Source: Nemertoderma westbladi (taxonomy: Eukaryota > Animalia > Xenacoelomorpha). From it: DNA of 48,684 nt. Location: positions 1 to 48,684 of the forward strand of contig JAUCBJ010004280.1 in assembly GCA_032718475.1 (NCBI GenBank). Direction: 5' to 3'. The position numbers were made by a program, and so were the translations under genes. Every line of letters begins with the position of its first letter. Position 1 is the stretch's first letter. A model generated the notes under the pieces. It saw only the letters and a program-made list of their open reading frames with translations. It ran no database searches and was not told where the DNA came from. Shown here one piece after another: positions 14,801 through 48,684 of this stretch.

Positions 14801-17800
14801 TAGTTTTTAATAAATATATATTGTAGTCTGTTAAACGTTTTTAGGCTATTTCATTCCTACCTGTTAGTTTTTTAATAAAAATTGTAAATCCCTGAATACC
14901 GATACCTCTGGAGATGATCATTTTATATTATTTATATTATATGAGTTTTCTCGATTTTACAACACTAATATTATAATATATTCCCCATGAAATTTTTTTT
15001 TATATATCCCCAATGGTTCCCGTACCGCGTTGTTTCTATATCCCCAATGGTTCCCGTACCGCGTTGTTTCTATATCCCCAATGGTTCCAGTACCGCGTTG
15101 TTTCTATATCTCCAATGGTTCCAGTACCGCGTTGTTTCTATATCCCCAATGGTTCCCGTACCGCGTTGTTTCTATATCTCCAATGGTTCCAGTACCGCGT
15201 TGTTTCTATATCCCCAATGGTTCCAGTACCGCGTTGTTTCTATATCTCCAATGGTTCCAGTACCGCGTTGTTTCTATATCCCCAATGGTTCCAGTACCGC
15301 GTTGTTTCTATATCCCCAATGGTTCCAGTACCGCGTTGTTTCTATATCCCCAATGGTTCCCGTACCGCGTTGTTTCTATATCCCCAATGGTTCCCGTACC
15401 GCGTTGTTTCTATATCCCCAATGGTTCCAGTACCGCGTTGTTTCTATATCTCCAATGGTTCCAGTACCGCGTTGTTTCTATATCCCCAATGGTTCCCGTA
15501 CCGCGTTGTTTCTATATCCCCAATGGTTCCCGTACCGCGTTGTTTCTATATCCCCAATGGTTCCCGTACCGCGTTGTTTCTATATCCCCAATTGTTCCCG
15601 TACCGCGTTGTTTCTATATCCCCAATGGTTCCCGTACCGCGTTGTTTCTATATCCCCAATGGTTCCCGTACCGCGTTGTTTCTATATCCCCAATGGTTCC
15701 AGTACCGCGTTGTTTCTATATCCCCAATGGTTCCCGTACCGCGTTGTTTCATGGGCAGAGGGATTGCGCTGGAACTTGGCATGTGCGTATAACTTTAACC
15801 AGCGGTCGTTATAGGCCACTTTTCGAAAAGTTTAATTCACGTTCGGTACCGGTACTGGGTACCGGTACGTCAGTAGGCCTATACCGGTACCAGTACGCCA
15901 GTAGGCCTAATCCGGTAGCGGGAAATACCGGGTAACATGCCTCGGGTATTGCGTGCTAGTATTTTATATAAAAACCTATTGGATATAGTTTTTTCATTAA
16001 CTAGTATAATTAATTATTATAGTAATAAAAATCATTATTTAAGTGAAAATTTGTTTAATTATCATAGTTACTGGACCCTTTTATATGTCAACACAATGTA
16101 CCAAATTCCAAGAGTATTTATTTTTTATAATTTCTGAATTAAGCCATTATTCTGAGTTGCGAATATACCGATATCTATGTCATTAAAGACATCTTATCGT
16201 CAGCGCTGAAACCTGTCCAAATCATAACAACTCCTAGCTGATTATCGCCAGCACTCAAACTTCTCCAGTCTCCACACCATTACAACTCTAAATATTTGTA
16301 TTTTCCATAAAACTAGTAGAAAACAATCACTGTAATTATAGATCCTATATTTTTGTAAATATTAACTTTCATTATGTATTTCCCTGGATTGTTTAAATGT
16401 TTTCTTTATTCTTTTTTACCTTTCTGGTTTTTAGGGCTGCTATTTTTCTGACACTCAAGTGTACATTCTTTATTGAATTTCGCGTTTTCTAGGTGTTTTG
16501 GTGACAAGATATTCGCTGGGTTTATTATTACTTGAATTATAATTATAATTATACAATTTTAACTAATATTTGAGTTATAGCAATATTTTATATATACATT
16601 AAATGAACAGATACAGCATAGGTCAATTACATATAATAACATTTATTTTCAAATTATAGTATAAAATATTACAAGTAGGAAAGTGTAGTTGCACGGTAGC
16701 ACGATGTGTAGTTACAACGTGGCACAATGTGTAGTGCTCGGTGGCACATAGTGTTGGTGAACGGAGGCTCAAAGTGTAGTTGCACGGTGGCTCAAAGTGT
16801 AGTTACACGGTGGCTCGGAATGTAGTTGCACAAACTGTAGTTGAACGATGACACAATGTGTAGTTGCACAGTGGCACAAACTGTAGTGGAACGGTGGCAG
16901 AAAGTTAGTTGCACGGTGGCACAACGTGTAGTTATGTGATGGAAAAAGTGTAATTCAATGGAGGCACACAGTGAAGTTACACAGTGGCACATAGTGTAGT
17001 TGCACAATGTGTAGTTGAACGGTGACACAATGTGTAGTTGCACGGTGGCACAAACTGTAGTGGAACGGTGGTAATATGTATTGTTGCACGGTGTCACAAT
17101 GTGTAGTTGCACAGTGGCACAAACTGTAGTGGAACGGTGGCAGAAAGTGCAGTTACATGGTGGCACAACGTGTAGTTATGTGATGGCAAAAGTGTAATTC
17201 AATGGCACAGTTACACAGTGGCACACAGTGTAGTTGCACAATGTGTAGTTATACGGTGGTACACCGTGTAGTTATGTGATGGCACAAAGTGTAATTTCAC
17301 GGTGACACAAAGTATAGTTGCACGATGACACAAACTGTAGTTGAACTGTGACACAATGTGTTGTTGCACGGTGTCACAAAGTGTAGTTGCACGGTGACAC
17401 AATGTGTAGTTGCACGGTGACACAAACTGTAGTGGAACGGTGGTAATATGTATTGTTGCACGGTGTCACAAAGTGTAATTTCACGGTGACACAAAGTATA
17501 GTTGAACGGTGACACAATGTGTAGTTGCACGGTGGCACAAACTGTAGTGGAACGGTGGTAATATGTATTGTTGCACGGTGTCACAAAGTGTAATTTCACG
17601 GTGACACAAAGTATAGTTGAACGGTGTCACAATGTGTAGTTGCACGGTGACACAAAGTGTAGTTGTATGGTGGCACAACTTGCAGTTGAGCGGTGGCACA
17701 AAGTGTAGTTGAACGGTGGCACAAAGTGTAGTTGTATTGTGGCTCAACTTGCAGTTGAACGGTGGCACAAAGTGTAGTTGAACGGTGGTAATATGTATTG

Positions 17801-20800
17801 TTGCACGGTGTCACAAAGTGTAGTTGCACGGTGACACAAAGTGTAGTTGTATGGTGGCACAACTTTCAGTTGAGCGGTGGCACAAAGTGTAGTTGAACGG
17901 TGGCACAAAGTGTAGTTGCACGGTGACACAAAGTGAAGTTGTATGGTGGCACAACTTGCAGTTAAACGGTGGCTCAAAGTGTAGTTGAACGGTGGTAATA
18001 TGTATTGTTGCACGGTGTCACAAAGTGTAGTTGCACGGTGACACAAAGTATAGTTGCACGATGACACAAACTGTAGTTGAACGGTGACTCAATGTGTAGT
18101 TGCACAGTGGCACAAACTGTAGTGGAACGGTGGCAGAAAGTGTAGTTGCACGGTGGCACAACGTGTAGTTCTGTGATGGCAAAAGTGTAATTCAATGGTG
18201 GCACAAAGTGAAGTTACACAGTGGCACATAGTGTAGTTATACGCTGGTACACCGTGTAGTTATGTGATGGCACAAAGTGTAATTTCACGGTGACACAAAG
18301 TATAGTTGCACGATAACACAAACTGTAGTTGAACTGTGACACAATGTGTAGTTGCACGGTGGCACAAACTTTAGTTGAACGGTGATAAAATGTATTGTTG
18401 CACGGTGTCACAAAGTGTAGTTGCACGGTGACACAAAGTGTAGTTGTATGGTGGCACAACTTGCAGTTGAGCGGTGGCACAAAGTGTAGTTGAACGGTGA
18501 CACAAAGTGTAGTTGTATGGTGGCACAACTTGCAGTTGAACGGTGGCACAAAGTGTAGTTGAACGGCGGCACAAAGTGTAGTTGAACGGTGGCAGAAAGT
18601 GTAGTTGAACGGTGGCACAAAGTGTAGTTGAACGGTGGCAGAAAGTGTAGTTGAAAGGTGGCACAAAGTGTAGTTGAACGGTGGCAGAAAGTGTAGTTGA
18701 ACGGTGGCACAAAGTGTAGTTGAACGGTGGCAGAAAGTGTAGTTGAACGGTGGCACAAAGTGTAGTTGAACGGTGGCAGAAAGTGTAGTTGAACGGTGGC
18801 ACAAAGTGTAGTTGAACGGTGGCAGAAAGTGTAGTTGAACGGTGGCACAAAGTGTAGTTGAACGGTGGCACAAAGTGTAGTTGAACGGTGGCACAAAGTG
18901 TAGTTGAACGGTTTCACAAAGTGTAGTTGAACGGTGGCAGAAAGTGTAGTTGAACGGTGGCACAAAGTGTAGTTGAACGGTGGCACAAAGTGTAGTTGAA
19001 TGGCGGTACAAAGAGTAGTTGAACGGTGGCACAAAGTGTAGTTGAACGGTGGCAGAAAGTGTAGTTGAACGGTGGCACAAAGTGTAGTTGAACGGTGGCA
19101 CAAAGTGTAGTTGTATGGTGGCACAAAGTGTAGTTGTATGGTGGCACAAAGTGTAGTTGTATGGTGGCACAAAGTGTAGTTGTATGGTGGCACAAAGTGT
19201 AGTTGTATGGTGGCACAAAGTGTAGTTGAACGGTGGCACAAAGTGTAGTTGCACGGTGACACAAAGTGTAGTTGTATGGTGGCACAAAGTGTAGTTGTAT
19301 GGTGGCACAAAGTGTAGTTGAACGGTGGCACAAAGTGTAGTTGCACGATGACACAAAGTGTAGTTGTATGGTGGCACAAAGTGTAGTTGTATGGTGGCAC
19401 AAAGTGTAGTTGTATGGTGGCACAAAGTGTAGTTGAACGGCGGCACAAAGTGTAGTTGAATGGCGGTACAAAGTGTAGTTGTATGGTGGCACAAAGTGTA
19501 GTTGAATGGCGGTACAAAGTGTAGTTGAATGGTGGCACAAAGTGTAGTTGAATGGCGGCACAAAGAGTAATTACATTTCTTAGGGAAACTTTCTTTTTAG
19601 TTTTTACTATTGCCAATAAAATTTAGTTATTTTCTCGAATAATTTTTCTTTGACTTGTTGAAATGGCAGTTAATGGCAGTTAATATCTTGTTATAATTTG
19701 TTTACTTTGAAAGTAATCGATATCTTGAAAATTACATTTTGAAATGTCGAAATGTCACATTGATTCCTTTAGATTTGGTTAAGACTAATCACAAGTTTAC
19801 CTTTCAGCAACTTAAAAAAAACACGCGTATTTTTGGCATGAAAGCTGTTTATTTTTTCAAGCAGTATAGATTAGGCAGATTTTGCTCCAAATTAATTAAT
19901 TAGTAACTGTTAGCGCGATTTATTCTGTTAAAGCATTTAGTAAATGTAGTGCTTGCTTTTCCCACAGTGAAGTCTCCTTGGATATGGGTGATGATCATGT
20001 ACTCTTAGAAAATGGTACAATCAATATTAGTGCACCTGAACTAACTACCATACTACCGTCATCGGCGAGGTATTATATACCCATACTAATGAGTCACCGT
20101 TGCATCCACAACACCATAACACACCGCGCTCCTTTATTTAGTGCACTTTATGTTTGTCTTGTATAAACCCACTTATTTTTCGTTATTTATTTTTTGTGTC
20201 GTGTGTAAGTGTATAAAGTTAAACCTTTTTTTCCCCTATGAACAACCCCTCATCTTTATTGCAACCTTTAGTGATTATTTATTCCATTGTTTTTACCCTC
20301 CAATTATAATACTTGTCTTCGTATGTATGTACCCCTCACCCAACCCTGTACCACCGTATGTTAAATTATATATTGTATGAATATATAGTATATATTGTAT
20401 GTATAAATTATATATATATTATATATATTTATATATAATTATATATGTTGGGATTTTTATAATATACACGCAGTAATATTAAATATTTATATATTAAATA
20501 TTTATTTAATATGTGTCCATTAGTTTTCATTTATAACGAAAAGACCCCCCAACACTAGAAAAACTATTATGCAAAATTTGTCTATAATTATTGGATTATT
20601 GTTCGCAAAATATTCATTTAAACTTAGTTTCGGTTTATCCCGTTGGCTTTAAAACGTTGCTCTAGGCGAAAACACTGTTGGTTGCGATTTTATTTAACGC
20701 TTAGGGTTGTCTGCAGTATTATATTTGTTGTTGTTTGAACTTAGTGTAAACAACAATGTACAATTTTTAAAAGCCACTGTTACTTTAAACCGGCAAAACT

Positions 20801-32800: not shown

Positions 32801-35800
32801 TTACATTGTGGACATTAATTTTTCGCGAATGAAACCTTACGACTTTACTAAAAAAACGGCCCACTAGTGTATTCGAAATCGCCTCATCGAGAGCTCTCGA
32901 AATATGTATATATTTATATGGTTTTGACAAAAAAAAATTTGACAATTTTTTCTCAAAATTTTGGCCACTTTTTGTGAGAACAACCCGCGCCGCCAATCAA
33001 TCTGATTTTATGATGTTAGGCGTTTTCTGGGACGCTAATCATGCATATATGACACTCAAAAATATTGTATCGGATTCATTGATTGCTGATGTGCCAAAGT
33101 GGGACGAAAAATACAAGTATCAAAAATTGGTAATAAATTTGATGGTTACACTAACATAAAATATTTTTGCCAAGTTCTATCGTGATCAGGGACCTCGAAA
33201 ACCAATATAGCTTCTGAAGTATCCAACCAAATTCAATATTTGGCGTTTGAATTTTTGTGCTACTTGTATTTTTCGTCCCACCAGAAAAGCACCAAAAAAC
33301 TAGTTGCGTTACCACGTAAGATTTTTAACGACTTGTATCGTGCTCAGCGACCTTAGAATCCAGTATAGCTTCAGAATTACCCAACCAAATGCGAAATTTA
33401 ATAGTATTAAATTTTTGTACTTATCCTTTTCGTCCTGGTGCACCAGAATCGCACCAAACTTCATGGTTGTATTACCAGAAATATTTCTACTACTTTCAAC
33501 GCTATCAGCGACCTCTAAAATCCATATACCTTCAAAATTATCCATCCAAACCAAACACAATATTTTTGTTTTAAATTGTATCTCGAAAACACTTACACCT
33601 TTTCCTTATCTTCAAACTTGTAATTTTTCAGCCAAAATCTAAAAACTTTCTTTGTAAAAATAGCCCGGGTGTGATTGGGTTAAAACCTTGAAGTTCAATC
33701 CATACAGTGAAACTTAGAAGTGCTCGTATTTAATTGTTATTTGCGTGTATTTTACCTTGAAGAGGAATTATTTTGATTGCGTCGTGCAAGTAGATTTATA
33801 TTTTTTATGTAATACATTAAAGTTTATTTATTACTTTCTAGTTTGGCGTGACGTCAGTTAATAATAGCAACGGTGACGTAGAGCTTTACTGGGCAGCTCC
33901 TGAGTCTCCTAACGGTGTTATTATTTCCTTTACTATCTATTACGCCTACAATGAAACAGACGGGACTCAATCCAACTCAGCTAAAACTCTTTGTATCTCC
34001 TACCCAGAATACGTAGCCAATAAACGTCGTATACTTGTCAGCAATCTAGAGGCTGGCAAACTATACACATTTATGGTTAGTCTGCAAGCCACTTTATTAT
34101 TATAAGATTATGTAGCAATTAAAATATTTCCGGTTGCTAAGGTAAACTTCTTTCATATTCTAATAACTATAAGCTTTGATTTACTATAAATATACTACCT
34201 TTGTGATAATATGAACTGTGATAATGAGTACACACCTAACATAATAATTCGATTACAAACAAGTAGTTATTTTTTTATTCCAACTTTACAATGAGTTCAT
34301 TTTATCATTTGTTCATCAGGTTCGGTCTAAGACGCTTGGAGGTGAAGGCACATGGAGTGAGCCCTTCGAATTGAGGATTCCCGAAGACCCTGGCGACGGC
34401 ATCAACCTACCCGTGGTGGTTGGTTGTTCGGTCGCCGGGGCTCTCGTCTTTATTGTCCTGGTCATCACGGCGGTTCTCCTCTATATTCGCAAACGTTACA
34501 TCGATAAGACTCTACCGAACGGCGTTCTCTACGCCAGCGTCAATCCGGAGTATATGAGTACCGCAGACGTTTACGTTCCCGATAGTTGGGAGGTGCCTCG
34601 CGAAAAGATTAACTTACTCAAGGAATTAGGCACTGGTAGCTTTGGGATGGTCTGGGAAGGTTGGTTTATATAAGTTAGGCACTGTCAGCTTTGGGATGGT
34701 CTGGGAAGGTTGGTTTATATAAGTTAGGCACTGTCAGCTTTGGGATGGTCTGGGAAGGTTGGTTTATATAAGTTAGGCACTGGTAGCTTTGGGATGGTCT
34801 GGGAAGGTTGGTTTATATAAGTTAGGCACTGGTAGCTTTGGGATGGTCTGGGAAGGTTGGTTTATATAAGTTAGGCACTGGTAGCTTTGGGATGGTCTGG
34901 GAAGGTTGGTTTATATAAGTTAGGTACTCATAGCTTTGGGATGGTCTGGGAAGGTTGGTTTATATAAGTTAGGCACCGGTAGCTTTGGGATGGTCTGGGA
35001 AGGTTGGTTTATATAAGTTAGGCACTCATAGCTTTGGGATGGTCTGGGAAGGTTGGTTTATATAAGTTAGGCACTCATAGCTTTGGGATGGTCTGGGAAG
35101 GTTGGTTTACATAAGTTAGGCACTGGTAGCTTTGGGATGGTCTGGGAAGGTTGGTTTATATAAATTAGGCACTGGTAGCTTTGGGATGGTCTGGGAAGGT
35201 TGGTTTATATAAGTTAGGCACTGGTAGCTTTGGGATGGTCTGGGAAGGTTGGTTTATATAAGTTAGGCACTCATAGCTTTGGGATGGTCTGGGAAGGTTG
35301 GTTTACATAAGTTAGGCACTGGTAGCTTTGGGATGGTCTGGGAAGGTTGGTTTATATAAATTAGGCACTGGTAGCTTTGGGATGGTCTGGGAAGGTTGGT
35401 TTATATAAGTTAGGCACTGGTAGCTTTGGGATGGTCTGGGAAGGTTGGTTTATATAAGTTAGGCACTCATAGCTTTGGGATGGTCTGGGAAGGTTGGTTT
35501 ATATAAGTTAGGCACTCATAGCTTTGGGATGGTCTGGGAAGGTTGGTTTATATAAATTAGGCACTGGTAGCTTTGGGATGGTCTGGGAAGGTTGGTTTAT
35601 ATAAGTTAGGCACTCATAGCTTTGGGATGGTCTGGGAAGGTTGGTTTATATAAATTAGGCACTGGTAGCTTTGGGATGGTCTGGGAAGGTTGGTTTATAT
35701 AAGTTAGGCACTCATAGCTTTGGGATGGTCTGGGAAGGTTGGTTTATATAAATTAGGCACTGGTAGCTTTGTGATGGTCTGGGAAGGTTGGTTTATATAA

Positions 35801-38800
35801 GTTAGGCACTGGTAGCTTTGGGATGGTCTGGGAAGGTTGGTTTATATAAGTTAGGCACTCATAGCTTTGGGATGGTCTGGGAAGGTTGGTTTATATAAGT
35901 TAGGCACTGTTAGCTTTGTGATGGTCTGGGAAGGTTGGTTTATATAAGTTAGGCACTCATAGCTTTGGGATGGTCTGGGAAGGTTGGTTTATATAAATTA
36001 GGCACTGGTAGCTTTGGGATGGTCTGGGAAGGTTGGTTTATATAAGTTAGGCACTCATAGCTTTGGGATGGTCTGGGAAGGTTGGTTTATATAAATTAGG
36101 CACTGGTAGCTTTGGGATGGTCTGGGAAGGTTGGTTTATATAAGTTAGGCACTCATAGCTTTGGGATGGTCTGGGAAGGTTGGTTTATATAAATTAGGCA
36201 CTGGTAGCTTTGGGATGGTCTGGGAAGGTTGGTTTATATAAGTTAGGCACTCATAGCTTTGGGATGGTCTGGGAAGGTTGGTTTATATAAGTTAGGCACT
36301 CGTAGCTTTGGGATGGTCTGGGAAGGTTGGTTTATATAAGTTAGGCACTCATAGCTTTGGGATGGTCTGGGAAGGTTGGTTTATATAAGTTAGGCACTGG
36401 TAGCTTTGGGATGGTCTGGGAAGGTTGGTTTATATAAGTTAGGCACTGGTAGCTTTGGGATGGTCTGGGAAGGTTGGTTTATATAAGTTAGGCACTCATA
36501 GCTTTGGGATGGTCTGGGAAGGTTGGTTTATATAAGTTAGGCACTCGTAGCTTTGGGATGGTCTGGGAAGGTTGGTTTATATAAGTTAGGCACTCATAGC
36601 TTTGGGATGGTCTGGGAAGGTTGGTTTATATAAGTTAGGCACTCATAGCTTTGGGATGGTCTGGGAAGGTTGGTTTATATAAGTTAGGCACTGGTAGCTT
36701 TGGGATGGTCTGGGAAGGTTGGTTTATATAAGTTAGGCACTCATAGCTTTGGGATGGTCTGGGAAGGTTGGTTTATATAAGTTAGGCACTCATAGCTTTG
36801 GGATGGTCTGGGAAGGTTGGTTTATATAAGTTAGGCACTCATAGCTTTGGGATGGTCTGGGAAGGTTGGTTTATATAAGTTAGGCACTCATAGCTTTGGG
36901 ATGGTCTGGGAAGGTTGGTTTATATAAGTTAGGCACTCATAGCTTTGGGATGGTCTGGGAAGGTTGGTTTATATAAGTTAGGCACTCATAGCTTTGGGAT
37001 GGTCTGGGAAGGTTGGTTTATATAAGTTAGGCACTCATAGCTTTGGGATGGTCTGGGAAGGTTGGTTTATATAAATTAGGCACTGGTAGCTTTGGGATGG
37101 TCTGGGAAGGTTGGTTTATATAAGTTAGGCACTCATAGCTTTGGGATGGTCTGGGAAGGTTGGTTTATATAAATTAGGCACTGGTAGCTTTGGGATGGTC
37201 TGGGAAGGTTGGTTTATATAAGTTAGGCACTCATAGCTTTGGGATGGTCTGGGAAGGTTGGTTTATATAAGTTAGGCACTCATAGCTTTGGGATGGTCTG
37301 GGAAGGTTGGTTTATATAAGTTAGGCACTCATAGCTTTGGGATGGTCTGGGAAGGTTGGTTTATATAAGTTAGGCACTGGTAGCTTTGGGATGGTCTGGG
37401 AAGGTTGGTTTATATAAGTTAGGCACTGGTAGCTTTGGGATGGTCTGGGAAGGTTGGTTTACATAAGTTAGGCACTGGTAGCTTTGGGATGGTCTGGGAA
37501 GGTTGGTTTATATAAGTTAGGCACTCATAGCTTTGGGATGGTCTGGGAAGGTTGGTTTATATAAGTTAGGCACTGTCAGCTTTGGGATGGTCTGGGAAGG
37601 TTGGTTTATATAAGTTAGGCACTGTCAGCTTTGGGATGGTCTGGGAAGGTTGGTTTATATAAGTTAGGCACTCATAGCTTTGGGATGGTCTGGGAAGGTT
37701 GGTTTATATAAGTTAGGCACTGTCAGCTTTGGGATGGTCTGGGAAGGTTGGTTTATATAAGTTAGGCACTGGTAGCTTTGGGATGGTCTGGGAAGGTTGG
37801 TTTATATAAGTTAGGCACTGGTAGCTTTGGGATGGTCTGGGAAGGTTGGTTTATATAAGTTAGGCACTGTTAGCTTTGGGATGGTCTGGGAAGGTTGGTT
37901 TATATAAGTTAGGCACTCGTAGCTTTGGGATAGTCTGGGGATGTTGGTTTATATAAGTTAGGCACTGGTAGCTTTGGGATGGTCTGGGAAGGTTGGTTTA
38001 TATAAGTTAGGCACTGGTAGCTTTGGGATGGTCTGGGAAGGTTGGTTTATATAAATTAGGCACTGGTAGCTTTGGGATGGTCTGGGGATGTTGGTTTATA
38101 TAAGTTAGGCACTGGTAGCTTTGGGATGGTCTGGGAAGGTTGGTTTATATAAGTTAGGCACTGGTAGCTTTGGGATGGTCTGGGAAGGTTGGTTTATATA
38201 AGTTAGGCACTGGTAGCTTTGGGATGGTCTGGGAAGGTTGGTTTATATAAGTTAGGCACTGGTCGCTTTGGGATGGTCTGGGAAGGTTGGTTTATATAAG
38301 TTAGGCACTGGTAGCTTTGGGATGGTCTGGGAAGGTTGGTTTATATAAGTTAGGCACTCATAGCTTTGGGATGGTCTGGGAAGGTTGGTTTATATAAGTT
38401 AGGCACCGGTAGCTTTGGGATGGTCTGGGAAGGTTGGTTTATATAAGTTAGGCACTCGTAGCTTTGGGATGGTCTGGGAAGGTTGGTTTATATAAGTTAG
38501 GCACTCATAGCTTTGGGATGGTCTGGGAAGGTTGGTTTATATAAGTTAGGCACCGGTAGCTTTGGGATGGTCTGGGAAGGTTGGTTTATATAAGTTAGGC
38601 ACTGGTAGCTTTGGGATGGTCTGGGAAGGTTGGTTTATATAAGTTAGGCACTCATAGCTTTGGGATGGTCTGGGAAGGTTGGTTTATATAAGTTAGGCAC
38701 TCGGTAGCTTTGGGATGGTCTGGGAAGGTTGGTTTATATAAGTTAGGCACTGGTAGCTTTGGGATGGTCTGGGAAGGTTGGTTTATATAAGTTAGGCACT

Positions 38801-41800
38801 GGTAGCTTTGGGATGGTCTGGGAAGGTTGGTTTATATAAGTTAGGCACTGGTAGCTTTGGGATGGTCTGGGAAGGTTGGTTTATATAAGTTAGGCACTGG
38901 TAGCTTTGGGATGGTCTGGGAAGGTTGGTTTATATAAGTTAGGCACTGGTAGCTTTGGGATGGTCTGGGAAGGTTGGTTTATATAAGTTAGGCACTGGTA
39001 GCTTTGGGATGGTCTGGGAAGGTTGGTTTATATAAGTTAGGCACTGGTAGCTTTGGGATGGTCTGGGAAGGTTGGTTTATATAAGTTAGGCACTCGGTAG
39101 CTTTGGGATGGTCTGGGAAGGTTGGTTTATATAAGTTAGGCACTGGTAGCTTTGGGATGGTCTGGGAAGGTTGGTTTATATAAGTTAGGCACTGGTAGCT
39201 TTGGGATGGTCTGGGAAGGTTGGTTTATATAAGTTAGGCACTCATAGCTTTGGGATGGTCTGGGAAGGTTGGTTTATATAAGTTAGGCACTGGTAGCTTT
39301 GGGATGGTCTGGGAAGGTTGGTTTATATAAGTTAGGCACTCATAGCTTTGGGATGGTCTGGGAAGGTTGGTTTATATAAGTTAGGCACTGGTAGCTTTGG
39401 GATGGTCTGGGAAGGTTGGTTTATATAAGTTAGGCACCGGTAGCTTTGGGATGGTCTGGGAAGGTTGGTTTATATAAGTTAGGCACTGGTAGCTTTGGGA
39501 TGGTCTGGGAAGGTTGGTTTATATAAGTTAGGCACTGGTAGCTTTGGGATGGTCTGGGAAGGTTGGTTTATATAAGTTAGGCACTGGTAGCTTTGGGATG
39601 GTCTGGGAAGGTTGGTTTATATAAGTTAGGCACTCATAGCTTTGGGATGGTCTGGGAAGGTTGGTTTATATAAGTTAGGCACTGGTAGCTTTGGGATGGT
39701 CTGGGAAGGTTGGTTTATATAAGTTAGGCACTCGTAGCTTTGGGATGGTCTGGGAAGGTTGGTTTATATAAGTTAGGCACTCATAGCTTTGGGATGGTCT
39801 GGGAAGGTTGGTTTATATAAGTTAGGCACTCGTAGCTTTGGGATGGTCTGGGAAGGTTGGTTTATATAAGTTAGGCACTCATAGCTTTGGGATGGTCTGG
39901 GAAGGTTGGTTTATATAAGTTAGGCACTGGTAGCTTTGGGATGGTCTGGGAAGGTTGGTTTATATAAGTTAGGCACTCATAGCTTTGGGATGGTCTGGGA
40001 AGGTTGGTTTATATAAGTTAGGCACTCGTAGCTTTGGGATGGTCTGGGAAGGTTGGTTTATATAAGTTAGGCACTCGTAGCTTTGGGATGGTCTGGGAAG
40101 GTTGGTTTATATAAGTTAGGCACTGGTAGCTTTGGGATGGTCTGGGAAGGTTGGTTTATATAAGTTAGGCACTGGTAGCTTTGGGATGGTCTGGGAAGGT
40201 TGGTTTATATAAGTTAGGCACTGGTAGCTTTGGGATGGTCTGGGAAGGTTGGTTTATATAAGTTAGGCACTGGTAGCTTTGGGATGGTCTGGGAAGGTTG
40301 GTTTATATAAGTTAGGCACTGGTAGCTTTGGGATGGTCTGGGAAGGTTGGTTTATATAAGTTAGGCACTGGTAGCTTTGGGATGGTCTGGGAAGGTTGGT
40401 TTATATAAGTTAGGCACTGGTAGCTTTGGGATGGTCTGGGAAGGTTGGTTTATATAAGTTAGGCACTGGTAGCTTTGGGATGGTCTGGGAAGGTTGGTTT
40501 ATATAAGTTAGGCACTCATAGCTTTGGGATGGTCTGGGAAGGTTGGTTTATATAAGTTAGGCACTGGTAGCTTTGGGATGGTCTGGGAAGGTTGGTTTAT
40601 ATAAGTTAGGCACTGGTAGCTTTGGGATGGTCTGGGAAGGTTGGTTTATATAAGTTAGGCACTGGTAGCTTTGGGATGGTCTGGGAAGGTTGGTTTATAT
40701 AAGTTAGGCACTGGTAGCTTTGGGATGGTCTGGGAAGGTTGGTTTATATAAGTTAGGCACTGGTAGCTTTGGGATGGTCTGGGAAGGTTGGTTTATATAA
40801 GTTAGGCACTGGTAGCTTTGGGATGGTCTGGGAAGGTTGGTTTATATAAGTTAGGCACTGGTAGCTTTGGGATGGTCTGGGAAGGTTGGTTTATATAAGT
40901 TAGGCACTCATAGCTTTGGGATGGTCTGGGAAGGTTGGTTTATATAAGTTAGGCACTGGTAGCTTTGGGATGGTCTGGGAAGGTTGGTTTATATAAGTTA
41001 GGCACTCATAGCTTTGGGATGGTCTGGGAAGGTTGGTTTATATAAGTTAGGCACTGGTAGCTTTGGGATGGTCTGGGAAGGTTGGTTTATATAAGTTAGG
41101 CACTGGTAGCTTTGGGATGGTCTGGGAAGGTTGGTTTATATAAGTTAGGCACTGGTAGCTTTGGGATGGTCTGGGAAGGTTGGTTTATATAAGTTAGGCA
41201 CTCGTAGCTTTGGGATGGTCTGGGAAGGTTGGTTTATATAAGTTAGGCACTGGTAGCTTTGGGATGGTCTGGGAAGGTTGGTTTATATAAGTTAGGCACT
41301 GGTAGCTTTGGGATGGTCTGGGAAGGTTGGTTTATATAAGTTAGGCACTGTTAGCTTTGGGATGGTCTGGGAAGGTTGGTTTATATAAGTTAGGCACTGG
41401 TAGCTTTGGGATGGTCTGGGAAGGTTGGTTTATATAAGTTAGGCACTCATAGCTTTGGGATGGTCTGGGAAGGTTGGTTTATATAAGTTAGGCACTGGTA
41501 GCTTTGGGATGGTCTGGGAAGGTTGGTTTATATAAGTTAGGCACTCGTAGCTTTGGGATGGTCTGGGAAGGTTGGTTTATATAAGTTAGGCACTCATAGC
41601 TTTGGGATGGTCTGGGAAGGTTGGTTTATATAAGTTAGGCACTGGTAGCTTTGGGATGGTCTGGGAAGGTTGGTTTATATAAGTTAGGCACTGGTAGCTT
41701 TGGGATGGTCTGGGAAGGTTGGTTTATATAAGTTAGGCACTGGTAGCTTTGGGATGGTCTGGGAAGGTTGGTTTATATAAGTTAGGCACTGGTAGCTTTG

Positions 41801-44800
41801 GGATGGTCTGGGAAGGTTGGTTTATATAAGTTAGGCACTGGTAGCTTTGGGATGGTCTGGGAAGGTTGGTTTATATAAGTTAGGCACTGGTAGCTTTGGG
41901 ATGGTCTGGGAAGGTTGGTTTATATAAGTTAGGCACTGGTAGCTTTGGGATGGTCTGGGAAGGTTGGTTTATATAAGTTAGGCACTCATAGCTTTGGGAT
42001 GGTCTGGGAAGGTTGGTTTATATAAGTTAGGCACCGGTAGCTTTGGGATGGTCTGGGAAGGTTGGTTTATATAAGTTAGGCACTGTCAGCTTTGGGATGG
42101 TCTGGGAAGGTTGGTTTATATAAGTTAGGCACCGGTAGCTTTGGGATGGTCTGGGAAGGTTGGTTTATATAAGTTAGGCACTGGTAGCTTTGGGATGGTC
42201 TGGGAAGGTTGGTTTATATAAGTTAGGCACTCATAGCTTTGGGATGGTCTGGGAAGGTTGGTTTATATAAGTTAGGCACTCATAGCTTTGGGATGGTCTG
42301 GGAAGGTTGGTTTATATAAGTTAGGCACTCATAGCTTTGGGATGGTCTGGGAAGGTTGGTTTATATAAGTTAGGCACTGGTAGCTTTGGGATGGTCTGGG
42401 AAGGTTGGTTTATATAAGTTAGGCACTCATAGCTTTGGGATGGTCTGGGAAGGTTGGTTTATATAAGTTAGGCACTGGTAGCTTTGGGATGGTCTGGGAA
42501 GGTTGGTTTATATAAGTTAGGCACTGGTAGCTTTGGGATGGTCTGGGAAGGTTGGTTTATATAAGTTAGGCACTCATAGCTTTGGGATGGTCTGGGAAGG
42601 TTGGTTTATATAAGTTAGGCACTCGTAGCTTTGGGATGGTCTGGGAAGGTTGGTTTATATAAGTTAGGCACTCATAGCTTTGGGATGGTCTGGGAAGGTT
42701 GGTTTATATACGTTAGGCACTGGTAGCTTTGGGATGGTCTGGGAAGGTTGGTTTATATAAGTTAGGCACTCATAGCTTTGGGATGGTCTGGGAAGGTTGG
42801 TTTATATAAGTTAGGCACTCATAGCTTTGGGATGGTCTGGGAAGGTTGGTTTATATAAGTTAGGCACTCGTAGCTTTGGGATGGTCTGGGAAGGTTGGTT
42901 TATATAAGTTAGGCACTGGTAGCTTTGGGATGGTCTGGGAAGGTTGGTTTATATAAGTTAGGCACTGGTAGCTTTTATGATACTATTTCAGGTGTATACC
43001 ATTCTCCCGATAATGAGGTCATCGGCGTTGCCGTCAAAACCGTCAACGAAAATGCATCGGTTCGCGACCGTATCGAATTCCTTAACGAAGCCTCCGTGAT
43101 GAAGTCCTTCGATTGCTATCACGTGGTTAAACTCGTGGGGGTCGTTAGTAAAGGCCAACCCACTCTGGTGGTTATGGAGTTGATGCTCCAAGGCGATCTC
43201 AAAAACTATCTGCGTTCGTTGCGGGATCTCGATTCCGATATTAAACTGAAACTCTCCGTGGCCATCAACTGGTCCGGCCAGATCGCCGATGGGATGGCCT
43301 ACCTCGCCGCCAAGAAGTTTGTCCATCGCGATCTCGCCGCGAGGAACTGCATGGTCGCCGACCAGTTTACCGTGAAGATCGGAGACTTCGGGATGACTCG
43401 GGATATTTACGAGACGGACTATTACCGGAAGGGCGGCAAGGGTTTGCTACCGGTCCGCTGGATGGCCCCCGAGTCCCTCAAGGACGGAGTGTTCGCGTGG
43501 CACAGCGATGTCTGGAGTTACGGCATCGTTCTCTGGGAGATGGCCACCTTGGCTTCCCAACCATACCAGGGACTCAGTAACGAACAGGTTAGTCTGTGTG
43601 GCTTGGCTTCCCAACCATACCAGGGACTCAGTAACGAACAGGTTAGTCTGTGTGGCTTGGCTTCCCAACCATACCAGGGACTCAGTAACGAACAGGTTAG
43701 TCTGTGTGGCTTGGCTTCCCAACCATACCAGGGACTCAGTAACGAACAGGTTAGTCTGTGTGGCTTGGCTTCCCAACCATACCAGGGACTCAGTAACGAA
43801 CAGGTTAGTCTGTGTGGCTTGGCTTCCCAACCATACCAGGGACTCAGTAACGAACAGGTTAGTCTATGTGGCTTGGCTTCCCAACCATACCAGGGACTCA
43901 GTAACGAACAGGTTAGTCTGTGTGGCTTGGCTTCCCAACCATACCAGGGACTCAGTAACGAACAGGTTAGTCTGTGTGGCTTGGCTTCCCAACCATACCA
44001 GGGACTCAGTAACGAACAGGTTAGTCTGTGTGGCTTGGCTTCCCAACCATACCAGGGACTCAGTAACGAACAGGTTAGTCTGTGTGGCTTGGCTTCCCAA
44101 CCATACCAGGGACTCAGTAACGAACAGGTTAGTCTGTGTGGCTTGGCTTCCCAACCATACCAGGGACTCAGTAACGAACAGGTTAGTCTGTGTGGCTTGG
44201 CTTCCCATCCATACCAGGGACTCAGTAACGAACAGGTTAGTCTGTGTGGCTTGGCTTCCCAACCATACCAGGGACTCAGTAACGAACAGGTTAGTCTGTG
44301 TGGCTTGGCTTCCCAACCATACCAGGGACTCAGTAACGAACAGGTTAGTCTGTGTGGCTTGGCTTCCCAACCATACCAGGGACTCAGTAACGAACAGGTT
44401 AGTCTGTGTGGCTTGGCTTCCCAACCATACCAGGGACTCAGTAACGAACAGGTTAGTCTGTGTGGCTTGGCTTCCCAACCATACCAGGGACTCAGTAACG
44501 AACAGGTTAGTCTGTGTGGCTTGGCTTCCCAACCATACCAGGGACTCAGTAACGAACAGGTTAGTCTGTGTGGCTTGGCTTCCCAACCATACCAGGGACT
44601 CAGTAACGAACAGGTTAGTCTGTGTGGCTTGGCTTCCCAACCATACCAGGGACTCAGTAACGAACAGGTTAGTCTGTGTGGCTTGGCTTCCCAACCATAC
44701 CAGGGACTCAGTAACGAACAGGTTAGTCTGTGTGGCTTGGCTTCCCAACCATACCAGGGACTCAGTAACGAACAGGTTAGTCTGTGTGGCTTGGCTTCCC

Positions 44801-46363
44801 AACCATACCAGGGACTCAGTAACGAACATGTTAGTCTGTGTGGCTTGGCTTCCCAACCATACCAGGGACTCAGTAACGAACAGGTTAGTCTGTGTGGCTT
44901 GGCTTCCCAACCATACCAGGGACTCAGTAACGAACAGGTTAGTCTGTGTGGCTTGGCTTCCCAACCATACCAGGGACTCAGTAACGAACAGGTTAGTCTG
45001 TGTGGCTTGGCTTCCCAACCATACCAGGGACTCAGTAACGAACAGGTTAGTCTGTGTGGAAGCCTCTACAGCACACTGTGCCATCTAATTATCTCCACCT
45101 GCTATAATAACCAAATATTGTAGCCAAATATTGAAAACGAGTTCCCTTTTTATACTTTCAATTATTTATCTTTCACACATTGCCTTTCTCGTCCATCTTA
45201 TTGACAATAAATTACACGTCATGTTACAGGTGTTGAAGACGGTTATCGAAGGGAACGTGCTAGAGAAGCCGGATGGCTGCCCTGATCGGCTCTATGACTT
45301 AATGAAACTGTGTTGGAATTACAACGCGAGACAACGTCCAACCTTCATCCGTCTCATAGAAATTCTACTGGGCGATCTCCGTGATAAGTTTATGGAGGTT
45401 TCATACTATTCGACTACGCTGCAGTCGAAACCAACTACAGTTGATAATGAATCTGGATACGGTGCATCAACAGGACGGGGTGCAGGATACGGTAAGTCTA
45501 CAAGACGGGGTGCAGGATACGGTAAGTATACAGGGCGGAGTGCACGGTAAGTCTACAGGACGGGGTGCAGGATTCGGTAAGTCTACAGGACGGGGTGCAG
45601 GATACGGTAAGTATACAGGACGGGGTGCAGGATACGGTAAGTCTACAGGACGGGGTGCAGGATGGTAAGTCTACAGGACGGGGTGCAGGAAACGGTAAGT
45701 CTACAGGACGGGGTGCAGGATACGGTAAGTCTACAGGACGGGGTGCAGGATACGGTAAGTCTACAGGACGGGGTGCATGATAAGGTAAGTCTACAGGACG
45801 GGGTGCAAGATACGGGAAGTCTACAGGACGGGGTACAGGATACGGTAAGTCTACAGGACGGGGTGCAGGATACGGTAAGTCTACAGGACTGGTTGCAGGA
45901 TACGGTAAGTCTACAGGACTGGTTGCAGGATACGGTAAGTCTACAGGACGGAGTGCAGGATACGGTAAGTCGACAGGACGGGGTGCAGGATACGGTAAGT
46001 CTACAGGACTGGTTGCAGGATACGGTAAGTCTACAGGACGGGGTGCAGGATACGGTAAGTGTACAGGACGGGGTGCAGGATACGGTAAGTATACAGGACG
46101 GGGTGCAGGATACGGTAAGTCTATTTAATTATCAGCATATTGCACTCTACTATTAATTGAATTTATTTGTAGGTGATAGCAGTTCAGCTTATAGTGAAGG
46201 GAATGCGGCTCTTCTGAGCCCTAGACGAGTTGAATCCATAGAAAAGGGACCCGGTACCGGTACCCAACCTAAAGGTGTCGACTGTCCGACTGCGGTGGTA
46301 CTGAGTAAGCCATCGGTAGGTCTACGAGTCCCTGGTTTCCCCAGCGATTCCACTAAATGCTAA
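2677..46363 (+). CDS. InR: Insulin/IGF-like peptide receptor tyrosine kinase, 5'-partial, 12 exons: 2677-2800, 4445-4659, 5241-5411, 8143-8338, 19968-20069, 29122-29288, 29483-29712, 33842-34075, 34320-34659, 42992-43587, 45230-45491, 46173-46363
   Basis: Manual splicing gives one continuous frame with GT-AG introns and matching phases. Diagnostic motifs: GEDACG, CCRC...[11 protein letters not shown] (alphaCT), [59 protein letters not shown]. Confidence 0.95.
2911..4335. repeat. Minisatellite, 16-bp unit TTCACTGAGTCCAATG, ~88 copies, moderately diverged
   Basis: Directly visible; fills most of intron 2801-4444. Confidence 0.97.
4445..4659 (+). CDS. InR: InR exon, FnIII-1 ([19 protein letters not shown]...QYAVFIKG...[13 protein letters not shown])
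   Basis: ttttatag acceptor and gtaagt donor at 4660. Contains the conserved DACG..W inter-chain cysteine motif and QYA.F. Confidence 0.93.
5241..5411 (+). CDS. InR: InR exon, FnIII-2a (TPTIPRDL...[20 protein letters not shown]...NYCDD)
   Basis: tgcag acceptor and gttagt donor at 5412. Contains the W..P...NG....Y...W and NYC motifs. Confidence 0.92.
6842..7978. repeat. Minisatellite, 47-bp unit GTATGTTGGTTGTGTATATGCGTGAAAAGTAG(T/C)CATATCTATTTCCG, ~24 copies
   Basis: Period 47 (6905, 6952...), one dimorphic T/C site. Confidence 0.97.
8143..8338 (+). CDS. InR: InR exon, insert domain alpha with CCxC and alphaCT ([35 protein letters not shown])
   Basis: tttttag acceptor and gtcagt donor at 8339. 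The cysteine cluster and FE..L.N..FV helix match alphaCT. Phases 1/2. Confidence 0.92.
9104..11376. repeat. Minisatellite with interspersed 37-bp and 42-bp units (with or without CCCTG): CCCTCCGTACTGTTGGATATGGTTGTTACCGTATGTG
   Basis: Directly visible; explains the ~770-aa ORFs in all three + frames. Confidence 0.97.
12391..12462 (-). mobile_element. tRNA-derived SINE head or tRNA pseudogene (Gly-TCC-like loop)
   Basis: Reverse complement GAGCCGAACCAGCTGAATGGTTAGAGCG...CTTCCAA...CCAGTTCGATACC has A-box and B-box-like motifs, but the acceptor and anticodon stems do not pair. Confidence 0.55.
13434..13639. mobile_element. MITE-like element (~206 bp) with CAGTGGCGTA / TACGCTACTG termini and internal poly(G)/poly(C)
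   Basis: Terminal inverted repeat with 9/10 match, followed by G- and C-runs. No clear TSD. Confidence 0.55.
13800..14200 (+). mobile_element. 5'-truncated non-LTR retrotransposon (CR1/L2-group) 3' end
   Basis: 13812-14024 translates to [70 protein letters not shown], the H.Y.TR...G..WN.LP..I....F...LK..L pattern of L2/CR1-group ORF2 C-termini. A T-rich UTR and AATAAAAA follow at ~14193. Confidence 0.75.
15003..15750. repeat. Minisatellite, 34-bp unit TATATCCCCAATGGTTCC(C/A)GTACCGCGTTGTTTC, ~22 copies
   Basis: Directly visible periodicity. Confidence 0.97.
16680..19570. repeat. Minisatellite, 23-bp unit CACAAAGTGTAGTTGAACGGTGG, ~125 copies, diverged at left and homogeneous at right
   Basis: Directly visible; source of the many minus-strand Cys/His/Thr-rich ORFs. 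Confidence 0.96.
19968..20069 (+). CDS. InR: Candidate InR 102-nt symmetric (phase 2-2) insert-domain exon ([33 protein letters not shown])
   Basis: Strong acceptor cttgcttttcccacag, donor AG|gtatta, open in the required frame, length 3n, NGT and NIS sequons. No homology support available. Confidence 0.6.
21305..22141. mobile_element. Foldback-like element: long imperfect inverted arms made of ~21-bp subrepeats
   Basis: Left arm has CCCCCAAAAACAATTATTCAT-like units; right arm has AATGTATTTGTTTTGGGGGAA units. Outer ends are related as inverted copies (CCACTAATTGAATGCCACCCCAAATTAGATGA versus reverse complement CAACCAATTAAAGTCATCCCAAAATTGATGA). Confidence 0.65.
22449..26350. repeat. Satellite array, 41-bp unit TCTAAAATTCAGTTCTATTTCGGAATACGTTTTATTCAAAG, ~95 copies
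   Basis: Period 41 (22491, 22532...); contains a 1275-bp higher-order duplication. Confidence 0.98.
29122..29288 (+). CDS. InR: InR insert-domain exon, Ser/Thr/Asp-rich ([23 protein letters not shown]...QGNVTVMT)
   Basis: ttttgtttcag acceptor and gtaagc donor at 29289. Phase 2-to-1 is exactly what links the alphaCT exon to the 29483 exon. GC-richer than its flanks. Confidence 0.7.
29483..29712 (+). CDS. InR: InR exon, end of insert and FnIII-2b (NIRKRGEG...[18 protein letters not shown]...CSVVA)
   Basis: cttgtttatcag acceptor and gtgagt donor at 29713. Contains the L.H...Y.I....CN...CS motif. Confidence 0.9.
30131..33679 (+). mobile_element. Non-autonomous piggyBac-like element (TTAA|CCC...GGG|TTAA), ~3.5 kb, carrying the 39-bp array
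   Basis: TTAA at 30127-30130 and 33680-33683. Termini CCCTATTTGGCCCGG versus reverse complement CCCAATCACACCCGG. Recurrent subterminal TTTT(G)GGA(T/C)GCT(G/A)AT(T/C)A motifs at ~30324, 30484 and 33021, inverted near 33340 and 33500. No transposase. Confidence 0.6.
31773..32449. repeat. Minisatellite, 39-bp unit GTTAGTGATGGCGTTACACGTGAAGGACTTAGAGATTAA with 19- and 44-bp variants
   Basis: Directly visible; each unit has CACGTG. Confidence 0.95.
33842..34075 (+). CDS. InR: InR exon, FnIII-3 ([22 protein letters not shown]...LCIS...[11 protein letters not shown])
   Basis: ctttctag acceptor and gttagt donor at 34076. 234 nt, phase 0-0, W..P..PNG.I motif. Confidence 0.92.
34320..34659 (+). CDS. 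InR: InR exon: end of FnIII-3, transmembrane helix, juxtamembrane NPEY, kinase Gly-rich loop ([11 protein letters not shown])
   Basis: catcag acceptor; hydrophobic [25 protein letters not shown] followed by RKR; SVNPEYMS; [13 protein letters not shown]; donor AG|gttggt at 34660. Confidence 0.95.
34626..42975 (+). repeat. Splice-donor-spanning array, 49-bp unit TTAGGCACTGGTAGCTTTGGGATGGTCTGGGAAG|GTTGGTTTATATAAG, 170 full copies plus a partial
   Basis: The first 34 nt of copy 1 are coding ([12 protein letters not shown]). Units start at 34626, 34675... and the last partial starts at 42958 (8332 = 170x49 + two 1-nt insertions). Confidence 0.98.
42992..43587 (+). CDS. InR: InR kinase exon, subdomains II-IX
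   Basis: tatttcag acceptor; [38 protein letters not shown]; first donor CAG|gttagt at 43588. Confidence 0.97.
43549..45060 (+). repeat. Splice-donor-spanning array, 54-bp unit TTGGCTTCCCAACCATACCAGGGACTCAGTAACGAACAG|GTTAGTCTGTGTGGC, 28 copies, stop-free in the kinase frame
   Basis: 1512 = 28x54; first donor 43588, last 45046. Near-perfect copies (I see three substitutions). Confidence 0.98.
45230..45491 (+). CDS. InR: InR kinase C-lobe exon (VLKTVIEG...[13 protein letters not shown]...RPTF...SYY...GAGY)
   Basis: ttacag acceptor; CW....RP.F motif; first strong donor G|gtaagt at 45492. A second in-frame donor lies at 45522. Confidence 0.92.
45470..46123 (+). repeat. Splice-donor-spanning array, 30-bp unit ACAGGACGGGGTGCAGGATACG|GTAAGTCT, ~22 copies
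   Basis: 21 GTAAGT donors from 45492 to 46115 plus one mutated copy (45815); two shortened units (25 and 28 bp). Confidence 0.96.
46173..46363 (+). CDS. InR: InR terminal coding exon ([10 protein letters not shown]...FPSDSTKC*)
   Basis: tttatttgtag acceptor, phase 1 matching the upstream donor, TAA ending at 46363. Confidence 0.8.
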
Positions 46364-46816
46364 AGACAATAGGACGGTCCCCTTTATATCAATATGCCAT
46401 GCCCACCCATATTTTATCCAATCAGTGCAGTTATCGTTGTACGTTACATCAGTCATTGTGGAGTTTCTTGATGTTATTGGTTGTATCGTTTCACTACGAC
46501 GATTTTGATTGGATGTTTCATTATTCGGGGTTATAGGCCCCGATATTGCTACGGAGATAGCGAGGACCGTATTCTTTCATGGCCCATTCCATCTTTAGTA
46601 ATATTAAACTAACATTATTTTAAAACATTTTGTAACTAATTTATCATTTTAATTCATTATGGTAAACTGAGAAGTTACCTTTATAACTTTATGTCCGAGG
46701 CAATCAGTGATGATATTGTATGATTTGTAGAGGTCACTCCAAGGCATTCGTATACTGTGAGCATTGGGTATCCAGGTATCGGTAAACACATACGCAGAAT
46801 CATTTTGCGGGCCCCT

Positions 46817-48684
46817 CAGGTGTTGCAAAAACTAGATAGGAACCCGCGGGTCGCCTCCGTTGTAGCAAAAACTAGATAGGAATCCGCGGGTCGCCTCTGG
46901 TGTAGCAAAAACTAGATAGGAACCCGAGGGTCGCCTCCGGTGTAGCAAAAACTAGATAGGAACCCGCGGGTCTCCTCCGGTGTAGTAAAAACTAGATAGG
47001 AACCCGCGGGTCGCCTCCGGTGTATTAAAAACTAGATAGGAACCCGCGGGTCGCCTCCGGTATAGCAAAAACTAGATAGGAACCCACGGGTCGCCTCCGG
47101 TGTAGCAAAAACTAGATAGGAACCCGCGGGTCTCCTCCGGTGTAGTAAAAACTAGATAGGAACCCGCGGGTCGCCTCCGGTGTATTAAAAACTAGATAGG
47201 AACCCGCGGGTCGCCTCCGGTATAGCAAAAACTAGATAGGAACCCACGGGTCGCCTCCGGTGTAGCAAAAACTAGATAGGAACCCGCGGGTCGCCTCTGG
47301 TGTAGCAAAAACTAGATAGGAACCCGCGGGTCTCCTCCGGTGTAGTAAAAACTAGATAGGAACCCGCGGGTCGCCTCCGGTGTAGCAAAAACTAGTTAGG
47401 AACCCGCGGGTCGCCTCCGGTGTATTAAAAACTAGATAGGAACCCGCGGGTCGCCTCCGGTATAGCAAAAACTAGATAGGAACCCGCGGGTCGCCTCCGG
47501 TGTATTAAAAACTAGATAGGAACCCGCGGGTCGCCTCCGGTATAGCAAAAACTAGATAGGAACCCACGGGTCGCCTCCGGTGTAGCAAAAACTAGATAGG
47601 AACCCGCGGGTCGCCTCTGGTGTAGCAAAAACTAGATCGGAACCCGCGGGTCGCCTCTGGTGTAGCAAAAACTAGTTAGGAACCCGCGGGTCGCCTCTGG
47701 TGTAGCAAAAACTAGATAGGAACCCGCGGGTCTCCTCCGGTGTAGTAAAAACTAGATAGGAACCCGCGGGTCGCCTCCGGTGTATTAAAAACTAGATAGG
47801 AACCCGCGGGTCGCCTCCGGTATAGCAAAAACTAGATAGGAACCCACGGGTCGCCTCCGGTGTAGCAAAAACTAGATAGGAACCCGCGGGTCGCCTCTGG
47901 TGTAGCAAAAACTAGATCGGAACCCGCGGGTCGCCTCTGGTGTAGCAAAAACTAGTTAGGAACCCGCGGGTCGCCTCTGGTGTAGCAAAAACTAGATAGG
48001 TACCCGCGGGTCGCCTCTGGTGTGTAGCAAAAACTAGATAGGAACCCGCGGGTCGCCTCTGGTGTAGCAAAAACTAGATAGGAACCCGCGGGTCGCTTCT
48101 GGTGTAGCAAAAACTAGATGGGAACCCCCGGGTCGCCTCTGGTGTAGCAAAAACTAGATAGGAACCCGCGGGTCGCCTCTGGTGTAGCGAAAACTAGATA
48201 GGAACCCGCGGGTCGCCTCTGGTGTAGCAAAAACTAGATAGGAACCCGCGGGTCGCCTCCGGTGTAGTAAAAACTAGATAGGAACCCGCGGGTCGCCTCC
48301 GGTGTATTAAAAACTAGATAGGAACCCGCGGGTCGCCTCCGGTGTATTAAAAACTAGATAGGAACCCGTGGGTCGCCTCTGGTGTAGCAAAAACTAGATA
48401 GGAACCCGCGGGTCGCCTCCGGTGTAGCAAAAACTAGATAGGAACCCGCGGGTCGCCTCCGGTGTAGCAAAAACTGGATAGGAACCCGCGGGTCGCCTCC
48501 GGTGTAGCAAAAACTAGATAGGAACCCGCGGGTCGCCTCTGGTGTAGCAAAAACTAGATAGGAACCCGCGGGTCGCCTCTGGTGTAGCGAAAACTAGATA
48601 GGAACCCGCGGGTCGCCTCTGGTGTAGTAAAAACTAGATAGGAACCCGCGGGTCGCCTCTGGTGTAGCGAAAACTAGATAGGAA
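46817..48684. repeat. Minisatellite, 40-bp unit AAAACTAGATAGGAACCCGCGGGTCGCCTC(C/T)GGTGTAGCA, at least 46 copies, runs off the window
   Basis: Directly visible 40-bp periodicity downstream of the InR stop codon. Confidence 0.97.

Follow-up and report, generated by a model that had tools for sequence, protein, structure and literature searches.

Can a gene still yield a normal mRNA when the 5' splice sites of its last three introns have each been multiplied into a tandem array, and why should such arrays straddle donors in three consecutive introns? The question is raised by the 48,684-nt stretch of Nemertoderma westbladi DNA analysed here (the window). An earlier note, made from the sequence alone, had offered two answers: a mutational process that favours exon/intron 5' boundaries, or tolerance of the duplicated donors through a strict first-donor rule or recursive splicing. 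The reading that we prefer, with a probability of about 0.7, is that these are three independent donor-spanning minisatellites ('mirages') that arose by ordinary means in a repeat-rich gene and persist as splicing takes the first donor.

The host gene

The window contains the 3' part of an insulin/IGF receptor gene, encoded on the + strand. Twelve exons located between positions 2677 and 46363 and separated throughout by GT..AG introns join into a single frame of 914 codons, whose sole stop is the terminal one. A tblastn search with three hemichordate receptors matched 6–7 of the 12 receptor-gene exons. Exon K2 matched the structures of IGF1R/INSR with an E value of about 1e-95 and showed 74–79% identity to named insulin/IGF receptors, the top matches being hemichordate and vertebrate sequences; no close relative was seen among the best 120 of 1,211 matches. 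The four 3'-terminal exons and the arrays between them are listed in Table 1. The earlier note had placed all three arrays in kinase-region introns, which is correct for the first two, but the third intron sits in the C-terminal tail, behind the kinase domain.

Two other features of the gene deserve mention. Positions 2872–2889 are predicted to form an 18-nt micro-exon, which lies between introns of 71 nt and 1,555 nt and is required for the open frame. The usual donor consensus is GTRAGT, from which this gene deviates in 5 of its 11 donors (at 5412, 8339, 34076, 34660 and 43588) by having a pyrimidine at +3 (GTTAGT in three cases, GTCAGT and GTTGGT).

Structure of the three arrays

Tandem Repeats Finder and parsing of the individual units bore out the description in the earlier note: each of the last three introns opens with a head-to-tail array of the exon end plus donor, with periods of 49, 54 and 30 bp, 91–99% matches and 170, 28 and 22 copies, respectively. 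The donor-side layout of the unit also stood, although its exonic share had been given as 22–39 nt and is corrected here to 22–40 nt. Where the note had spoken of about 220 near-identical donors, we counted 220 donor positions in the three arrays, 219 of which retain the GT.

Table 1. The 3'-terminal exons of the receptor gene and the arrays and unique sequences of its last three introns (positions in the window; a slash marks the exon/intron border)
Feature	Position	Strand	Description	Support
Exon K1	34320..34659	+	Transmembrane helix, juxtamembrane region, kinase start through GxGxxG loop; last 34 nt are the exonic first copy of array A1	tblastn, spliced X3 contig
Array A1	34626..42975	+	49-bp unit (34 exon + 15 intron nt), x170; 18-nt partial unit at end; first donor AAG/GTTGGT, GT at 34660	
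Intron A1, unique 3' remnant	42976..42991	+	16 nt, CAG acceptor at end	Bridged by X1 and X2 contigs
Exon K2	42992..43587	+	Kinase core, 198 codons; last 40 nt are the exonic first copy of A2	
Array A2	43548..45059	+	54-bp unit (40 + 14 nt), x28; in frame, no stops; first donor CAG/GTTAGT, GT at 43588	
Intron A2, unique remainder	45060..45229	+	184 nt from last donor	
Exon K3	45230..45491	+	Kinase end and start of C-terminal tail; last 22 nt are the exonic first copy of A3	
Array A3	about 45470..46122	+	30-bp unit (22 + 8 nt), 22 donor positions; more diverged; first donor ACG/GTAAGT, GT at 45492	
Intron A3, unique remainder	46123..46172	+	58 nt from last donor	Read by X1, X2 and X4 loose ends
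Exon K4	46173..46363	+	Last coding exon, to stop codon	tblastn, X3 contig continues into K4

Measured from their last donors, the three introns are just 49, 184 and 58 nt long, as against full lengths of 8,332, 1,642 and 681 nt; thus, short introns have been inflated by the arrays. The remnant listed in Table 1 is the only unique 3' sequence left in intron A1, where the array has replaced nearly the whole intron. The introns that hold A2 and A3 likely predate their arrays, because they retain unique 3' parts free of array sequence. Intron gain by tandem duplication of an exonic AGGT, in which duplicated exon sequence would supply both ends of the intron, does not fit these unique 3' parts, nor the 15 + 16 nt in intron A1 that are unlike the exon.

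The longest word common to any two of the three units is 4–7 nt on either strand, and no 14-mer of the units was found elsewhere in the window. The amplifications must therefore have been independent, as the earlier note had argued, and a common unit or a mobile element as their source was likewise rejected.

The arrays differ in their internal variation. In A1, variation is concentrated at a single codon, that of the second glycine of the GxGxxG loop, where five codon types occur in runs (GGT in 96 of the 170 units, CAT in 53, CGT in 12, GTC in 6 and GTT in 3). The exonic copy has GGT, and conversion from 74 of the 169 intronic units would alter this glycine. At the other end of the same array (42958–42991), the 18-nt partial unit and the 16 unique nucleotides place the acceptor AG exactly one 49-nt period past the last donor, so that it keeps step with the AG of each unit. 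Either this is a coincidence of about 1 in 49, or in-register conversion or RNA-templated repair has left its mark. No junction microhomology was detected at A2 (the automated count is otherwise confounded by unit variants). A3 includes one 25-nt and one 28-nt unit; its start is placed at 45455 by Tandem Repeats Finder because of a 9-nt look-alike in the exon. This 9-nt exon word recurs 30 nt on, across the donor (45455–45491), a spacing equal to the A3 period, and may have seeded the first misalignment.

The consequences of using a later donor differ as well. In A1, all 169 later donors lead to a premature stop, whereas all 27 later donors of A2 are in frame, each adding 18 aa. In A3, the second donor is in frame (+10 aa) and donors 3–22 lead to a stop. 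The unspliced frame of exon K2 stays open across all 28 A2 units, giving an ORF of 736 codons.

Presence of the arrays in contigs of sequencing runs

Of eight runs, X1–X4 were used, and their contigs were compared with two short stretches that contain the array ends other than the 5' end of A1; X5–X8 carried next to none of the sequence words of these stretches. X1 and X4 are DNA of one sample and study, X2 is DNA of another study. Unit-to-unit junctions were present in DNA contigs of both studies, at depths far above those of the flanks; for A1 they were seen in X1, X2 and X4, and the passage from the 3' end of this array to exon K2 is bridged by contigs of X1 and X2. The unique part of intron A2 has two places at which X1 and X2 alike deviate from the window and two further ones at which X1 alone does. 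As X1 and X2 are thus distinct both from one another and from the window, at least two genotypes carry the arrays.

The depth of the unit contigs relative to flanking contigs was about 80–110 for A1 (X2) and, for A2, 13.5–15 in X2 and 2–6 in X1, and the summed depth bins were 102 and 273 for A1 and 4 and 28 for A3, contig depth in all these cases being a different quantity from copy number. With the same reservation that contig depth does not equal copy number, the depth of A2 and A3 relative to flanks differs about 3- to 7-fold between X1 and X2.

These data leave hardly any room for the idea that an assembly artefact produced the arrays. In its favour, the A2 depth ratios (about 14–15 in X2, 2–6 in X1) fall short of 28, X1, X2 and also X3 are each flagged as a possible source of the window, and no read spans a whole array in the stretches compared, so that the numbers 170, 28 and 22 are unconfirmed. 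On the other hand, an artefact would not account for high-depth unit-to-unit junctions in the DNA of two studies, for the differences between X1, X2 and the window in unique sequence, or for structured unit variants such as the runs of codon types in A1. Given that DNA contigs of two studies contain unit-to-unit junctions, we take the existence of the three arrays as established, their copy numbers being assembled values, with no contig spanning an array.

Which donor is used

Although labelled 'DNA?', run X3 was treated as an RNA assembly because its contigs are spliced at GT..AG. Record 17 (2,617 nt, depth 57.8) runs from unique K1 sequence, where its loose end is located (34614–34625), through one copy of the exon end and a GT..AG joint into K2. 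Record 19 (2,887 nt, depth 96.5) passes from K2 to K3, skipping intron A2 at a GT..AG joint, and then from the first A3 donor into K4 (located at 46175). The spliced contigs thus carry a single exon-end copy at all three array junctions. As splicing from donor n would leave n − 1 extra units, a single copy is the product of the first donor. Hence, in the dominant assembled RNA of this run, the most upstream donor is used at all three introns and the mRNA junctions are normal despite the extra donors, which also answers the question in the earlier note of which copy RNA junctions would reveal. The scope of this result is the contigs of one run, which drop rare variants, from an animal whose arrays may be of another size. 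The exon parts shared with A1 and A2 (34 and 40 nt) are longer than the assembly word, which we take to be 31 letters, so first-donor use at these two introns rests on contig continuity rather than on a single spanning read.

A2 tells us most, being a natural control whose unused donors carry no stop. Because its later donors keep the frame open, their absence from the dominant form cannot be put down to decay of transcripts that contain a stop. X3 depth was 0 at 42946–42971, 43596–43655, 45050–45220 and 45506–45560 (intron and unit junctions), which is not proof of absence. Two further X3 contigs match K2 over only 30–34 nt (43476–43505 and 43314–43347) and then diverge; they probably derive from other tyrosine-kinase transcripts.

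First-donor use bears on the possibility that the arrays are functional, with later donors acting as a length dial (in-frame inserts from A2 and from donor 2 of A3, a stop from A1) or with the copies binding U1 snRNP and tuning receptor output. Such a role might be read into the unit lengths, two of three being multiples of 3, into the open frame across A2, and into the almost invariant donor hexamer with its retained GT. However, near identity is expected of young homogenised arrays, and most unit positions are equally invariant. An 18-aa insert would fall in the kinase C-lobe, the A3 frame is lost from donor 3 on, and the uneven depth of A2 and A3 in X1 and X2 hints at free length change. 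With the dominant spliced contigs using the first donor, we regard a functional role as very unlikely and the arrays as likely harmless.

Recursive splicing, in which each AG/GT unit would act as a zero-length exon and so neutralise the copies, appears remoter still. The units of A1 (AAG/GT) and A2 (CAG/GT) have the appropriate border, but those of A3 (ACG/GT) have no AG. The sequence before the AG is also a poor acceptor: its pyrimidine share is 0.47 in A1 and 0.29 in A2, compared to 0.47–0.82 at the 12 true acceptors of the gene, and its T share is 0.35 and 0.12, compared to 0.35–0.71. Each of the 12 true acceptors ends in CAG or TAG, but the A1 units have AAG. Steps of 49–54 nt would be unnecessary if the first donor simply joins the acceptor. 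Of the two neutralising mechanisms considered in the earlier note, recursive splicing therefore finds no support, as A3 lacks the AG and A1 and A2 lack a T-rich tract before their donors; tolerance through a first-donor rule fits both the spliced X3 contigs and the experiments on human F7, as far as the accessible part of that report describes them (PMC1557585).

Placement of arrays in the window

Counting arrays with a period of at least 16 and at least five copies, we found 15, which cover 26,374 of the 48,684 bases (54%). The 12 others are unrelated to A1–A3. Seven unrelated arrays with periods of 20–42 lie in the 20.8-kb intron at 8339–29121, none of them touching a splice site; in the 23-bp array at 16680–19569, the units towards the 5' end appear to have diverged more than those towards the 3' end. 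A 16-bp array (2912–4322) begins 23 nt past the donor of the micro-exon and does not include this donor, and a 40-bp array with at least 47 copies (46807–48684) starts about 440 nt past the stop codon and continues off the end of the window.

For the chance tests, each array was collapsed to one unit, which left 22,807 nt with 11 donors and 12 acceptors. Uniform placement predicts 0.18 donor-straddling, 0.21 acceptor-straddling and 1.6 wholly exonic arrays, compared to 3, 0 and 0 observed. Over four weightings (GC weighting, exonic and acceptor classes removed), the expected number of donor-straddling arrays was 0.13–0.37 (p 0.0003–0.005). Twelve of the 15 arrays are non-exonic, and none is wholly exonic, compared to 1.6–5.4 expected. 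The window was picked for this pattern after the fact, so these p values hold inside it; a like window would be expected by chance once in about 200–1,400 of similar make-up. Within the window the donor excess is real, which argues against a plain background-plus-survival reading. The three arrays occupying consecutive introns among 11 gives p 0.055.

The statement in the earlier note that all of these arrays straddle a donor and none an acceptor holds as a count, 3:0 in the window. A donor-only polarity does not follow, given a non-significant one-sided p of 0.125 and the acceptor-spanning mirage described for the amphioxus globin gene BflGb6 (PMC3087553). Arrays are found at 3 of the 4 exon ends with a GC content of at least 0.50 and a GGG run, and at 0 of the 7 others; this association, noticed post hoc, suggests that GC-rich, GGG-bearing exon ends serve as a compositional seed for arrays.

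Origin of the arrays

In the preferred reading, 30–54 bp at a GC- and G-rich exon end would first have been duplicated in tandem, in a region prone to arrays. Slippage or unequal exchange would then have lengthened and homogenised the array, as the patchy unit variants and the uneven depth between runs suggest. Splicing connects the most upstream donor with the normal acceptor, as seen in the dominant assembled RNA of one run, which leaves the protein unchanged; the choice probably follows an upstream-first rule like that reported for human F7 (PMC1557585). Selection would remove arrays wholly inside exons and leave the donor-spanning ones. Three arrays in a row would then reflect a high local birth rate, GC-rich exon-end seeds and the choice of the window for its pattern. 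Against this scheme, a pure survival filter cannot push the count above the neutral expectation, and background plus filter does not fully predict three donor arrays without window selection, because the excess survives GC weighting (at most 0.37 expected, p at most 0.005).

The alternative is a preferential birth of arrays at exon/intron borders, and at donors in particular, caused by a lesion coupled to transcription or splicing (R-loop, polymerase pausing, RNA-templated repair), with first-donor use letting them persist. We hold this to be possible but lean clearly against it. The excess of observed over expected arrays, in consecutive introns, is what border-targeted birth would produce, although it comes from a window picked post hoc, the like of which should turn up by chance at the frequency given above, and the ratio of donors to acceptors is not significant. 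A strong sense-strand G skew (0.58 in A1, 0.42 in A3) would favour R-loops, but the skew of A2 is 0.00, purely intronic arrays of the window reach 0.38–0.92, and the canonical four-run G-quadruplex motif was found in none of the three arrays. The 18-nt partial unit of A1 sits exactly 34 nt ahead of the acceptor, the place predicted for a spliced copy that is anchored on the following exon, but a match in register is expected in about 1 of 49 cases and was seen in one array of three. Finally, the mechanism that generates mirages is called unclear in the accessible part of PMC3087553, which leaves room for such a lesion; the same paper describes mirages that span acceptors. The more general proposition, that such arrays arise at splice borders more often than chance, we also consider improbable, to about the same degree or slightly more so.

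Relation to known boundary-spanning repeats

The earlier note had proposed an undescribed system. This does not hold, as the class has been named mirage in amphioxus (PMC3087553; PMC3902484) and five human genes with donor minisatellites appear in the accessible part of PMC1557585. The three arrays are a large and dense new case of this known class. Amphioxus mirages, as the accessible parts of the two papers describe them, occur at 5' and 3' boundaries in the genes for Adh3, the globins BflGb6 and BflGb9, troponin C and PGBD5, are compatible with a normal mRNA, show length instability and are of unclear origin. They have in common with the arrays described here a unit that crosses the exon-intron boundary, a repeated splice signal, a normal mRNA and an invertebrate host gene, and the unit sizes overlap (30–54 bp here, 10–72 bp in amphioxus Adh3). 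The differences lie in copy number (170, 28 and 22, compared to 3–6 in BflGb6) and in the side of the intron, with all three arrays at donors here but amphioxus mirages on both sides (PMC3087553).

In humans, the 37-bp VNTR in intron 7 of F7 was reported to be spliced from its first donor only, and scanning was shown with 50 constructs; donor minisatellites are also described in 6-16, CBS, LMNB2 and PDGF (PMC1557585, accessible part). The first donor alone is used in F7, LMNB2 and PDGF, whereas two further donors are used in 6-16 and CBS. As in the F7-type genes, the first unit here crosses the exon/donor junction and is followed by identical pseudo-donors; splicing takes the donor furthest upstream, including where a later one would preserve the frame. 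The human arrays, as described, have 5–26 copies with one array per gene, whereas here there are three in a single gene, the largest being 8.3 kb; furthermore, scanning in F7 was shown only in mammalian cells, whereas this is an invertebrate gene.

De Grassi and Ciccarelli (2009) described variable internal tandem repeats, located at exon-intron boundaries, from which new introns and alternative transcripts can arise (PMC2812944, accessible part). Such variable repeats share their location with A1–A3; however, they can make introns, whereas A2 and A3 lie inside introns with unique 3' parts of their own (184 and 58 nt). The literature searched, with most subscription papers and supplements outside its coverage, yielded no genome-wide count of such arrays at donors versus acceptors, and the accessible parts of PMC10078293 and bioRxiv 10.64898/2026.09.22.753313 contain no count of boundary-spanning arrays.

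Implications

We see this gene as a useful extreme example, not as a new system. It extends the first-donor behaviour of human F7 (5–9 copies in the accessible part of PMC1557585) to an invertebrate gene with up to 170 copies, and shows a route by which an intron of about 50 nt can reach 8.3 kb. It also sets a trap for gene prediction, the unspliced frame of the kinase exon running through all the A2 units. The finding would matter more if a genome-wide count put array birth at donors above chance. In the boldest version, which we think unlikely, a lesion coupled to splicing or transcription would direct minisatellite birth in this animal to the 5' splice sites of transcribed genes, and a strict first-donor rule (against up to 169 identical competitors over 8.3 kb, with in-frame copies invisible to nonsense-mediated decay) would then permit a more than 100-fold expansion of short introns out of their own exon ends. 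Were such targeted birth true, mirages would form a mutational class of their own and not just be survivors.
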